From the IMG/VR virus record IMGVR_UViG_2541047682_000003: a stretch of DNA of 24,435 nt. One strand, 5' to 3'. A model generated the notes under the pieces. It ran no database searches, was not told the DNA's origin, and worked only from the letters and a program-made list of their open reading frames with translations. Below are positions 8,385 through 11,111 of this stretch, piece by piece (position 1 is the first letter of the stretch; each line of letters starts with the position of its first letter). The DNA is from a virus (Duplodnaviria > Heunggongvirae > Uroviricota > Caudoviricetes). A program made the position numbers and the translations under genes.

Positions 8385-8430
8385 TGGCTTTTCAGCCACG
8401 TAGTCGAGAGTCGACGTTGTTTAAAGAGCC
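8385..8430 (-). promoter_or_regulatory. Putative nutL (boxA + boxB)
   Basis: Minus-strand read: boxA-like GGCTCTTTAA (revcomp of 8421-8430), then ACAACG, a small hairpin, TACG, and a boxB-like hairpin TGGCT-GAAA-AGCCA (8385-8398). Same architecture as the site downstream of cro. Confidence 0.55.
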
Positions 8431-8469
8431 TGCCAGTCTGTTCCATTTGGCTTCCAGCGTCCTGCTGAC

Positions 8470-8515
8470 GGTTAAATAGTACGATATGTACTTTACAAGA
8501 TCAATACAATTTGTT
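8470..8515 (-). promoter_or_regulatory. Putative pL promoter with OL operators
   Basis: Minus-strand read: -35 TTGATC (8504-8499), 17-nt spacer, -10 TACTAT (8481-8476). Operator-like palindrome AGTAC-ATATC-GTACT (8478-8492) overlaps the spacer and -10; a second ATTGTATT motif lies at 8503-8510. Confidence 0.5.
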
Positions 8516-8689
8516 GTAAGTTGGCGTGGTTTTTTATAACGCTTTGTATTTAATAGTGTTGTTTTTTAGCGTGGATGTATTGCCTCGGCGATGTAAGGAG
8601 AGATCAGAATTGCGTGGTTTAGTGGGTTGCATCTATTTATTTTTCAATAAATATAATTGGTTATGTGTTTTTAGGTGGGCGAACGTGAG

Positions 8690-8720
8690 GCAAAGAAAAC
8701 CCGGCGCTGAGGCCGGGTTG
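8690..8720 (-). terminator. Intrinsic terminator closing the cI operon (minus strand)
   Basis: 8-bp GC-rich stem AACCCGGC/GCCGGGTT with 6-nt loop, followed on the minus strand by TTCTTTG; immediately after the stop of the 250-aa ORF. Confidence 0.6.
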
Positions 8721-8722
8721 TA

Positions 8723-9475
8723 TTATGCTGCAAGTCTCTTAACCCAAGTCTCTCTTTTGGAGAATGGTAGAACTTGGCTTGATTCATGGAAGAGTAAGGA
8801 GAGTTGTTGCATTTGATCACCAATTGCTTCGCTGTCTATAACAACAAATCTGTTGTTATACTCCTCACTTGAAGCTTTAAGATCAATTAGTTTCCCAAGC
8901 AATGAGTAAGCACTATTCCAGCTTCCTCCGTGTTTCACGCTTGATGTAAAAACGTATTTAGGTATGTCGGTTTTTATTGTTACAGGGACGGTAATTTGAT
9001 GTCCACTCAAGCCATATACGTTTTCACGAAGAGAAAGTGCGTCTCTAAGCTCTGTGTGATATAGATAATCAATAACCATACTTTCAAACTTTTCAGCTTG
9101 AACTGGCTGATACCAGTCTAACGACAAAGTTGATGCGAGTATACCAGCTCTAATTATGTTCGATGTAATCGCACCGACATCCTTTTCTGTTGCCCAAGCA
9201 ATGATTTCTCCTCGAGCATTGAGTTCTGCGCCTTCTTTAAGCAGTAATTGTCGTATCTCATCAAGTCGTTTTTTGGTAAGCGAGATCCCTCTTGCCTCCA
9301 TATTCATTAAGGCATCGCATCTGTCACTAACTAAATACCTACCATTGACTTCACGGATAAAGGCACCGACATGCTCTCCATCATCACAGTAAGTGAATGG
9401 ACTGATAATTCTCAAGGTCTTGCCTATTGGATGGCATTCGAAACCTAGTTGTGAGATCACTGTTGAGCACATCAT
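8723..9475 (-). CDS. Uncharacterised protein B of the cI-linked two-gene cassette
   Basis: 250-aa ORF; its ATG (9475-9473) overlaps the TGA of the upstream ORF (ATGA). No family or catalytic motif recognised. AT-rich by eye. Confidence 0.7.
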   Translation of the reverse strand: MMCSTVISQLGFECHPIGKTLRIISPFTYCDDGEHVGAFIREVNGRYLVSDRCDALMNMEARGISLTKKRLDEIRQLLLKEGAELNARGEIIAWATEKDVGAITSNIIRAGILASTLSLDWYQPVQAEKFESMVIDYLYHTELRDALSLRENVYGLSGHQITVPVTIKTDIPKYVFTSSVKHGGSWNSAYSLLGKLIDLKASSEEYNNRFVVIDSEAIGDQMQQLSLLFHESSQVLPFSKRETWVKRLAA

Positions 9476-10029
9476 ATTCCAAACCCCATTTGCCCCGACT
9501 CATCTTCAAGCGGTAAAGGTATTCTCCCAGAGTAAGTTATGTTCAGATGTTTACAGAAGTAATTCCAATACCCTACCAGGTCATCTGGGTTTATGTCATC
9601 TTCGATTGGAAACGCTATTCTATCACTATAGTATCCAGCTTCTTCATAGTATACATGGTAGTGAGCACCGTAAATGATATCTTGGTACTTCGGATGATCG
9701 ACCTTGTAACTATTCGTGTGTTTGTCAAAGTGATAGGTATCTACCGCGAAAACCCTCTTGTTATGATAGAAAGCAATAATATTTATTTTAGGGTAAGAAA
9801 TCGGGTCATCAGGTTCTGAATCCTGATCTGGTTTCCATTTCAGTTCAAACTTTAGCCCTTGTATAGGTATACAATCCTCATCCAAGGGGATGATATGGGC
9901 TTGTAGCCACATATCAGAGCGACTTGGTTTCTGTTTCCATTTAACGCCAGAAAAGTTAACTATTTTTTTACAATAAAGTACTTTATCAACTTCTACTTGG
10001 CTTGGCTGATAATCATCTATTTTTGCCAA
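9472..10029 (-). CDS. Uncharacterised protein A of the cI-linked two-gene cassette
   Basis: 185-aa ORF starting 39 nt downstream of the cI stop. First codon is TTG directly after an in-frame TAA, so the start is non-canonical or uncertain. Tyr/His/Asp/Pro-rich, no TM segment, no family recognised. Confidence 0.65.
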   Translation of the reverse strand: MAKIDDYQPSQVEVDKVLYCKKIVNFSGVKWKQKPSRSDMWLQAHIIPLDEDCIPIQGLKFELKWKPDQDSEPDDPISYPKINIIAFYHNKRVFAVDTYHFDKHTNSYKVDHPKYQDIIYGAHYHVYYEEAGYYSDRIAFPIEDDINPDDLVGYWNYFCKHLNITYSGRIPLPLEDESGQMGFGI

Positions 10030-10068
10030 TGTTTACCGCCCTGTAAATTGTAGATAAAAGTGGTTTCA

Positions 10069-10722
10069 TCACCCAAACGTCTCTTCAGGCCATTGGCTGG
10101 CGATAACTTTCCCCACAACGGAACAACTCTCATTGCATGGGATCATTGGGTATTGTGGGTTTAGTGGCTGTAGAAACACCTGACCGCTATCCCTGATCAG
10201 TTTCTTGAAGGTAAATTCATCACCACCAAGTCTGGCTATGCAGAAATCGCCGGGCTCAACAGCTTGCTCAGGGTCAACCAGAATTAACATCCCGTCAGGA
10301 AAGCTGGGTTTGGAACCTGTTGGTGCGGTCATTGAGTTACCTTCAACCTCAAGCCAGAATGCAGAGTCACTGGCTTTTTTGGTTGTGCTTACCAATCTCT
10401 CCGCATCGCCTTTGGTAAAGGTTCTGAGTTCTGGAGAGAACATCCCAGCCTGAACATGAGAAAAAACAGGGTACTCATATTGTTTTTTAACTGGGGCCGA
10501 TGAGTATTCGCCAACAGGTGAAAATGTCCCGTCGTGGTTGAATGATATGTTATCAATACCAAGGTATTTAAACACCACACCAATATCACTAAGAGATGGA
10601 TGACGAGATCCGCGCAACCAGTGTCCAATCCCACCCTGCGTCATACCTAGCTCTTCGGCTAACTTCTCTTGAGTTATGCCGAGCTCTTTCATTCTGGATC
10701 TAGCCAGTTCATACCATTTCAT
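10069..10722 (-). CDS. cI: CI-type prophage repressor (HTH N-domain + LexA/S24-like C-domain)
   Basis: C-terminal ~135 aa match lambda cI as recalled ([28 protein letters not shown]...[14 protein letters not shown]) and the N-terminal HTH ([20 protein letters not shown]) differs. Start chosen at ATG 10722 (AGGA 7 nt upstream); alternatives are ATG 10728, ATG 10764 (possible leaderless) or TTG 10770. Confidence 0.93.
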
Positions 10723-10728
10723 TTTCAT

Positions 10729-10839
10729 GTCCTTATTATTACGCTCTGTACTGGAACCATCCATGCACAATGTGTATTTTTACTTGTATTCGCAAAGTAC
10801 ATATTGTATTTTTTTATTCGTGTTTACTATGGAGGGCAT
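10729..10839. promoter_or_regulatory. OR region: divergent pRM/pR promoters and operators
   Basis: 110-bp AT-rich gap between divergent cI and cro. Operator-like AAAGTACATATTGTATT (10795-10810) closely matches the OL palindrome; related ACAATGTGTATTT at about 10768-10781. Promoter hexamers not assigned with confidence. Confidence 0.55.
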
Positions 10840-11055
10840 ATGAGCAACCTACGAAAATATCGAGAGTCACTGAATATCTCTCAAACAACACTTGCTAAGG
10901 CAGTTGGATGCACACAGGGAGCTATCGGACATTGGGAATCTGGTCGTCGCTTCCCAGACCTTAAAACATGCCGTGCTCTTGTTGCGTGCCTAAACAAGTT
11001 AGGCGCAAAAGTCAGTCTTGATGACGTGTTCCCGCCGGAACACAAAGCCGCTTAA
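10840..11055 (+). CDS. cro: Cro-like repressor (HTH)
   Basis: 71-aa ORF from ATG 10840 with RBS GGAGGG; HTH ISQTTLAKAVGCTQGAIGHWESG; divergent from cI. Not lambda Cro in sequence. Confidence 0.85.
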   Translation: MSNLRKYRESLNISQTTLAKAVGCTQGAIGHWESGRRFPDLKTCRALVACLNKLGAKVSLDDVFPPEHKAA

Positions 11056-11065
11056 TAAGCGGATC

Positions 11066-11111
11066 CGCTCTTTGTAACAACGGACATTCGTCCTACGTCG
11101 CTGAAAAGCGA
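11066..11111 (+). promoter_or_regulatory. Putative nutR (boxA + boxB)
   Basis: boxA-like CGCTCTTT (11066-11073), then AACAACG, small hairpin GGAC-ATTC-GTCC, TACG, and boxB-like hairpin TCGCT-GAAA-AGCGA (11098-11111). Mirrors the candidate nutL. Confidence 0.55.

Follow-up and report, generated by a model that had tools for sequence, protein, structure and literature searches.

Paired nut sites with a covarying spacer hairpin and a GAAA-loop boxB in a lambdoid prophage with an N of the VT2-Sakai/H-19B family

The DNA examined here, a stretch of 24,435 nucleotides from a Caudoviricetes virus (IMG/VR record IMGVR_UViG_2541047682_000003; hereafter the window), contains in two places the same ordered series of short elements. 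These are very probably the nutL and nutR sites of a lambdoid prophage whose N belongs to the VT2-Sakai/H-19B family, at which N would assemble an antitermination complex on the early transcripts, and in which a small hairpin in the spacer that separates boxA from boxB would act as a structural length reducer. Four observations carry this identification: the positions of the sites, their identity with annotated features of phage VT2-Sakai, the membership of the restored N protein in a known N family, and the occurrence of such pairs in 12 of 12 genomes that encode distant relatives of this N. The first-pass annotation of the window had assigned the two sites in the same way.

Read in the direction of transcription, each site consists of a boxA, the hexamer ACAACG, the spacer hairpin, the tetramer UACG and a boxB stem-loop. 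In nutL (8385..8430, minus strand), these elements are boxA GGCUCUUUA (8430-8422), ACAACG (8420-8415), the hairpin GUCGA-CUC-UCGAC (8415-8403), UACG (8402-8399) and boxB UGGCU-GAAA-AGCCA (8398-8385). The corresponding elements of nutR (11066..11111, plus strand) are boxA CGCUCUUUG (11066-11074), ACAACG (11077-11082), the hairpin GGAC-AUUC-GUCC (11082-11093), UACG (11094-11097) and boxB UCGCU-GAAA-AGCGA (11098-11111). The hairpin begins with the final G of ACAACG and ends with the C that precedes TACG, which corrects the earlier description of these motifs. Both sites have a CGCUCUU(U)A-like boxA on the 5' side of boxB, and the AACAA that follows prolongs it into a boxA of the ribosomal RNA operon (rrn) type (rrn: UGCUCUUUA-ACAA...). 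The boxB of both sites has a stem of 5 bp and a GAAA loop that is, by its sequence, a true tetraloop of the GNRA type. The distance from the 8-nt boxA core to boxB is 23 nt in nutL and nutR alike.

This arrangement is specific to the two sites. A pattern describing it (GCTCTTT-N(1-4)-ACAACG-N(8-16)-TACGTNGCTGAAAAGCNA) matches the window exactly twice, at 8385-8429 on the minus strand and at 11067-11111 on the plus strand, and has no match in 100 dinucleotide-preserving shuffles of the window. The earlier statement that the same elements recur in the same order downstream of pL and of cro is thus exact. A covariance model built from members of the family likewise recovers only nutL (64.9 bits) and nutR (55.9 bits), with the next candidate below 7 bits. 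Scanning positions 8000-11600 against Rfam at E-values up to 10 returned chance-level matches only and no family for nut sites. One site lies between the promoter pL and N, the other between pR/cro and tR1/cII, and both are on the transcribed strand.

From boxA to boxB, the two sites are base-for-base identical to the features annotated as 'putative N-utilization leftward' and 'rightward' in VT2-Sakai (AP000422.1). Megablast searches against phage records gave 215 matches for the nutL region and 185 for the nutR region, mostly in Stx1- and Stx2-converting phages and other lambdoid phages of E. coli. The nutR module is present in 1,083 of 5,426 complete E. coli genomes, about a fifth (at 90% identity or more, a count that may mix both of the boxB loop classes described below), including Nissle 1917 and the type strain. 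It occurs at up to four places per genome and often beside Shiga-toxin phage genes. The N gene of the window is disrupted by an insertion sequence (IS), but removal of this element in silico restores a protein of 90 residues that matches the Pfam family PF25694 (N_peptide, E = 1.5e-32), shows 99% identity to VT2-Sakai N and 56% to H-19B N, and carries the arginine-rich motif SRRRARRA. A search of PDB sequences with this protein gave no match. The finding as such is already known: the sites are publicly annotated in AP000422.1 and the spacer hairpin has been studied in H-19B, so that the discovery value is small.

The comparative evidence comprises 49 distinct sites, taken from phages and from 12 Enterobacterales genomes and collected in three ways. 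First, 80 viral contigs encode an N protein that is 98-100% identical to the restored one. Their nutR is invariant despite differing upstream cro ends, and in their nutL the spacer-hairpin loop alone differs (CUC, ACAC, ACUC, AUC or GCAC), length included. Second, a looser pattern anchored on the hairpin flanks and on the 5' half of boxB yielded 35 distinct sites after filtering. The alignment of this set, A2, holds 27 sites, and the hairpin was not a selection criterion. These sites contain at least five unrelated stems (GUCGA/UCGAC, GGAC/GUCC, GAUUC/GAAUC, GGUGA/UCACC and GGCC/GGCC), in all of which the closing pair is formed by the G of ACAAYG with the C preceding UACG. Four of the five pairs of the spacer hairpin are changed on both sides and 93% of its cells are paired; with the partner slid, 23-48% of the cells of the whole structure pair.

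Third, a scan with an alignment of five N sequences led, by the protein alone, to 12 genomes from Kluyvera, Enterobacter, Klebsiella, Citrobacter, Pantoea, Tatumella and further Enterobacterales. The paired motif that the first-pass annotation expected in relatives with the same N type is present in all of them: each has one site just 5' of N and a second one on the opposite strand, 1.3-3.9 kb away (37-62 bits), and all 22 expected sites were found. In the alignment of these sites, A5, 98% of cells are paired, versus 22-48% when the partner is slid, and seven of ten pairs are changed on both sides; for the spacer hairpin the fraction is again four of five. The boxB stem is paired in 100% of cells and its closing pair covaries. 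This pair is U-A in most of these sites and C-G in Tatumella (UGGCC-GAAA-GGCCA), a change that supports a true 4-nt loop.

Which parts of the sites are constrained follows from the same set. The spacer hairpin is present in all 49 sites and is closed by G-C without exception (27/27 and 21/21), while the loops are 3-6 nt long and unrelated in sequence, and whole hairpins measure 10-16 nt. Hardly any variation occurs in the flanks ACAA(C/U) and CUACG, which are constant in the A2 columns, where the selection pattern required them, and in 21 of the 22 protein-anchored sites. Since stem, loop and length are free to change, with nothing but the pairing and the closing G-C retained, the role of the hairpin appears to be structural, and the conservation of the single-stranded flanks suggests that these are the better candidates for recognition. 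The first-pass annotation had proposed the hairpin as an additional recognition element, which could be bound specifically by N, NusA or another factor. Such a role would fit its presence in every site, the constant closing pair and the protection of spacer G residues by N and NusA in H-19B nutR (PMC3526286), but a specific contact is unlikely with so many unrelated stems and loops, all the more as nutL and nutR of one phage serve the same N with different hairpins.

The conserved spacer might instead belong mainly to the site at which Rho loads for tR1 and tune termination rather than assembly of the N complex. The rut site of tR1 in H-19B does overlap nutR, whose spacer is protected by Rho on its own (PMC3526286), and lambda nutR lies between rutA and rutB. 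However, the architecture is kept at nutL, which has no overlapping Rho-dependent terminator (PMC3526286), and flanks and hairpin are equally conserved at nutL and nutR across genera. We therefore regard this explanation as quite improbable; Rho loading could be an added role at nutR, not the common one. A further candidate, that the spacer palindromes are binding sites for a protein at the DNA level, was rejected, because base pairing persists through complete changes of their sequence and the transcribed strand contains G-U pairs.

The structural reading suggests the following mechanism. The transcripts from pL and pR would each carry a nut site as RNA that folds into two hairpins. The arginine-rich motif of N (residues ~9-26, GTAASRRRARRANLQSQ) would bind boxB, as expected from homology to the lambda N/boxB pair. 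By analogy with lambda and H-19B, NusB and S10 could bind the rrn-like boxA (GCUCUUUA), and NusA would bind N together with the single-stranded spacer. In lambda nut RNA, NusA contacts only the spacer (PMC2724277). The complex would then stay on RNA polymerase through tR1 and the leftward terminators. Folding of the spacer hairpin would take 12-13 of the 23 nt out of the linear RNA. The single-stranded remainder amounts to AACAAC plus UACG (10 nt) in nutL and to UAACAAC plus UACG (11 nt) in nutR, compared with 8-9 nt in lambda. The hairpin would thereby join the conserved flanks, boxA and boxB without itself being a sequence-specific recognition element. This is also what Neely and Friedman (Mol Microbiol 2000, 38:1074) reportedly concluded for H-19B: the spacer dyad is said to be needed only as a structure that brings the flanking sites together, for which they reportedly coined the name 'reducer'. 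Breaking one arm is said to inactivate the site and compensatory changes to restore it, with little effect of deleting the dyad altogether.

Several points weigh against this interpretation. N binding, Nus dependence and antitermination would all have to carry over from other phages, and the reducer idea and the mild effect of the deletion come from what Neely and Friedman reportedly found in H-19B. The boxB pairs in A2 were imposed by the filter, so that its counts lean to structure, and A5 was fitted to the model, which also favours structure somewhat. With N disrupted, the sites are probably not used in cis. Finally, folding of the isolated 55-nt sites forms the spacer hairpin in both competing structures, but the minimum-energy fold pairs boxA with the 3' half of boxB (-14.1 versus -12.0 and -12.3 versus -11.7 kcal/mol). 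The alternative is thus favoured by 2.1 and 0.6 kcal/mol, with weak z-scores of -1.4 and -1.0. The folding of both regions, which the first-pass annotation had recommended as a check, thus returns the spacer hairpin but not boxB in the 55-nt minimum-energy structures; the centroid structures of 141-nt contexts form both hairpins. Folding energies by themselves leave the choice of structure unsettled. Because energy minimisation prefers the other fold and the z-scores are weak, the boxB call rests on the comparative evidence.

Taken at face value, the energies could mean that the functional fold is the one in which boxA pairs with the loop and 3' arm of boxB, and that each site is a two-structure switch. 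It is indeed the minimum-energy structure of both isolated sites, but such pairing cannot be conserved in a family in which boxA is, by eye, absent from about a third of the sites (for example GGUGAACAU, AGCACCACUCC, GGUGAACAUACAACG and AGCACCACUCCCACAACG). Moreover, the boxB stem covaries independently, closing pair included, the 141-nt centroids contain both hairpins, and the z-scores of the isolated sites are not significant. A switch of this kind is very hard to believe. The source of the alternative fold is a short repeat: the 5' part of boxA, (G/C)GCU, repeats the 5' arm of boxB in the same site, U(G/C)GCU, and is hence able to pair with the 3' arm of boxB. The two sites differ in G/C at this position, and they do so in boxA and boxB alike, which may be a coincidence. 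No recognisable boxA precedes ACAA(C/U)G in nutL and nutR of the records L206, L207 and L208, nor in H-19B nutL (L003). With so many members lacking a recognisable boxA, this element is facultative in the family.

The N gene of the window is split. VT2-Sakai N begins with ATGTCCAGAAAAACAGAATTTAAAGGC, and the copy in the window is broken after ...GAATTT. The first seven codons (MSRKTEF; 8266..8286, minus strand, with the start codon at 8286 and GGAGG upstream) were placed by alignment to VT2-Sakai N. The remaining 83 codons and the stop (KGTAASRRRARRANLQSQ...TAR; 6761..7012, minus strand) include the arginine-rich motif. Inside codons 7-8 lies an IS3-family element of 1250 bp (7016..8265, minus strand) with inverted ends (TGAAGTGG.../...CCACTTCA), two IS3-type open reading frames (ORFs) and a 3-bp target duplication, TTT, at 7013-7015 and 8266-8268. 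Copies of this kind are named 'IS3-like element ISEc52 family' in RefSeq. The exact junction is absent from the 5,426 complete E. coli genomes; four matches with 'full coverage' are composed of two pieces hundreds of bases apart.

The insertion leaves the 3' ORF of N without a start codon or ribosome-binding site. Because the element interrupts N, the nut sites here would have no N encoded in cis, and could work only with an N of the same specificity supplied in trans by a co-resident prophage. Whether they are now inert relics, in a prophage whose early operons stay terminated, we consider evenly balanced. Destruction of N by the IS speaks for it. On the other side, neither site is damaged and both have the sequence found in active phages, and as the nutR module occurs at several places in one E. 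coli genome, a same-class N could come in trans. In either case the answer bears on present activity, not on the identity of the sequences as nut sites.

Between nutL and the ribosome-binding site of N, the leader is predicted to fold into a long stem (8290..8378, minus strand; -39.3 kcal/mol, z = -4.0), the base of which pairs with the GGGAGG Shine-Dalgarno region. By eye, the arms of this stem differ yet stay complementary in other genera (L206-L217; GAUGUGGUG/CACCACAUC, GAUGG/CCAUC), and the insert between them ranges from ~10 to 170 nt. This leader resembles the RNase III-processed N leader of lambda. A T-arm-like string in the N leader of L206 and L207 had raised the idea of a tRNA-like element, but ARAGORN found none. 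An ORF for 94 residues (8162-8446, minus strand) that spans nutL and the N leader into the IS is almost certainly spurious, and related records annotate an over-long N that starts 5' of the GGAGG-ATG start (for example AP005153.1, L002 3357-3701).

The lambdoid immunity and early region occupies ~6.7-13 kb of the window. Homology to the 'putative major leftward promoter' of VT2-Sakai (AP000422.1) places pL at 8476..8504 (minus strand; TTGATC-17 nt-TACTAT), and the start of the leader that follows, CAGCAGGACGC, is common to the window, lambda and H-19B. The rightward promoter pR, at 10784..10812 (plus strand), was placed in the same way by homology to the 'putative major rightward promoter'; a simple consensus scan detected neither promoter. 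Pfam identifies the cI repressor (HTH_3 and Peptidase_S24; 10069..10722, minus strand), cro (HTH_3, 71 residues; 10840..11055, plus strand) and cII (Phage_CII; 11197..11493, plus strand), and O/P-like genes come after cII on the plus strand. A tR1-like hairpin (UAUGCGU-UUCC-ACGCAUA; 11134..11166, plus strand) lies 3' of nutR and before cII, where alignment to AP000422.1 maps the 'putative rho dependent terminator for pR transcript' to ~11141-11166. It would be the terminator that N-modified polymerase reads through, and cII the first gene that depends on this. The surrounding 141 nt (11040-11180) are unusually structured, with z = -3.54.

Two further features adjoin these elements. A 6-bp hairpin, CCGCUU-AAU-AAGCGG (11048-11062), spans the stop codon of cro just 5' of the nutR boxA, and its 3' arm overlaps a second palindrome, GCGGAUCCGC, which takes in the first bases of boxA. 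Between cI and pL, at the position of rexA/rexB in lambda, two minus-strand ORFs (8723-9475 and 9472-10029) match the PADLOC candidate PDC-M24 (component B, E = 4.7e-10; component A, E = 4.8e-4) and the Pfam families DUF1828/DUF6978. They probably form a prophage-borne defence module that is expressed from the lysogen. The accessory genes that VT2-Sakai carries at this position are different.

Within the family, the boxB loop divides the sites into two classes. All sites with a GACAA loop adjoin an N of the H-19B type (RSRRRERLKAKALANG), and all GAAA sites adjoin an N with a lambda-like motif (SRRRARRANLQSQ, GRRRERRAHLQSE, GRRRAQRSHLQNP, GRRRERRAAVQSA or GRRRVRRADLQSE), so that the type of loop tracks the class of the arginine-rich motif. 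Individual records add detail: one nutL (L144 777-828) has a GCAA loop, also of the GNRA type, with GAAA in nutR of the same phage, and the C-G-closed boxB of Tatumella terrea (L216 4765-4816) adjoins an N with GRRRVRRAD. BLASTP pairs the motif of the window N, AASRRRARRANLQSQE, with AQTRRRERRAEKQAQW of lambda N (E = 5e-4 for the pair). In this alignment (AASRRRARRANLQSQ against AQTRRRERRAEKQAQ), a Glu of the window N occupies the position of lambda Trp18. The target of lambda N is a GNRNA pentaloop with one base extruded and the fold of a GNRA tetraloop; it must be closed by a U-A pair (PMC12027372). Judged from its sequence, the GAAA boxB of the window is a plain tetraloop version of this target. 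The boxB structures presented in reviews are pentaloops (lambda, P22) and a hexaloop (phi21) that mimic the GNRA fold, and a natural true-tetraloop class was not found as characterised in the open-access literature searched. The N of L101 (2074-2397, minus strand) combines the N-terminal motif GRRRERRAHLQSE of this family with a lambda-like C-terminus (...EYHKQI...KVRGKSIPLI), and N proteins are therefore mosaics, built from one module that binds RNA and one that binds RNA polymerase.

Taken together, these observations allow a broader proposal, which we offer as tentative. The GAAA sites may represent an uncharacterised N/boxB class, with a natural GNRA tetraloop and a lambda-like motif that has Glu in place of Trp18. 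ACAAC and CUACG, which the variable hairpin would draw together, might form the core contact for a Nus factor, probably NusA, in place of boxA. A one-base change of the loop from GAAA to GACAA, accompanied by an altered N motif, might then switch specificity between co-resident prophages.

The present analysis assigns exact coordinates to the early regulatory elements in this prophage and documents an N knocked out by an insertion sequence while the nut sites stay intact. The comparative set separates constrained parts of the sites (flanks, closing pairs, loop class) from free ones (stem and loop of the hairpin, boxA). With the nutR module in roughly one in five complete E. coli genomes, frequently beside Shiga-toxin phage genes, it could matter for cross-activation between co-resident prophages which N acts on which prophage. 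The modest new point would be the natural true-tetraloop boxB class with its own N motifs.

The closest known systems are VT2-Sakai (Sp5) and the many Stx1/Stx2 and non-Stx lambdoid phages that carry the same N. VT2-Sakai shares with the window the identical nut sites, the nearly identical N and the same placement relative to pL, N, cro, tR1 and cII. Its N is uninterrupted, in contrast to the split gene described above, and its annotation ends each nut feature within the 3' arm of boxB. Compared with lambda, which has boxA CGCUCUUA, a spacer and boxB in the same order, the boxB of the window shares the 5-bp stem closed by U-A, a loop that starts with G and the GNRA fold, in the window a predicted one, and the N motifs are alike (RRRxRRAxxQxQ). 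The lambda loop, however, has 5 nt (GAAAA or GAAGA) with one base flipped out, versus 4 nt in the window. The first-pass annotation had correctly noted the longer distance between boxA and boxB: the lambda spacer has no hairpin and measures 9 nt in nutR and 8 nt in nutL, against 23 nt here. The covariance model of the family does not match the lambda nut sites. The boxA region recalls the rrn operons, since GGCUCUUUA-AACAAC in nutL and CGCUCUUUG-UAACAAC in nutR resemble rrn UGCUCUUUA-ACAAUUUA, including an extra U that is absent from lambda boxA and the ACAA that follows. The rrn antiterminator, however, has a dispensable boxB in front of its boxA and works without an N protein.

In H-19B (AF034975), nutL reads ...ACAACG-AUUCGAAUAUGAAUC-UACG-GCGCUGACAAAGCGC and nutR reads CGCUAUUUUCACAAUG-GACAUUCGUC-CUACG-UCGCUGACAAAGCGA. 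The order is that of the window, with ACAA(C/U)G, a spacer hairpin, CUACG and a 5-bp boxB closed by U-A, and the hairpin of H-19B nutR, GGACAUUCGUCC, is identical to that of the window nutR together with its flanks. The architecture is therefore unusual, as the first-pass annotation had called it, relative to lambda only, and H-19B N belongs to the same Pfam family as the N of the window. H-19B nutR contains two hairpins, and N with NusA protects its spacer and boxB (PMC3526286). H-19B has a degenerate boxA at nutR (CGCUAUUUU) and no recognisable one at nutL; the boxA of the window is near-consensus at both sites. H-19B N reportedly needs NusA, and not boxA, NusB or S10 (Neely and Friedman, as above). 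The near-consensus boxA suggests that the class of the window may differ from H-19B in this need, though boxA is missing in many of its relatives. The window thus shares with H-19B the covarying spacer hairpin and the flanks ACAA(C/U) and (C)UACG. The differences lie in boxB and in the protein: the loop is GACAA in H-19B, where the nutL boxB equals the P22 boxB of the NMR structure, and the H-19B motif RSRRRERLKAKALANG departs from that of the window after RRRER and includes a 7-residue insertion. Because the window has a GAAA loop and the motif SRRRARRANLQSQ instead, its sites and N are best described as a putative sister specificity class of H-19B, not as the H-19B class itself.

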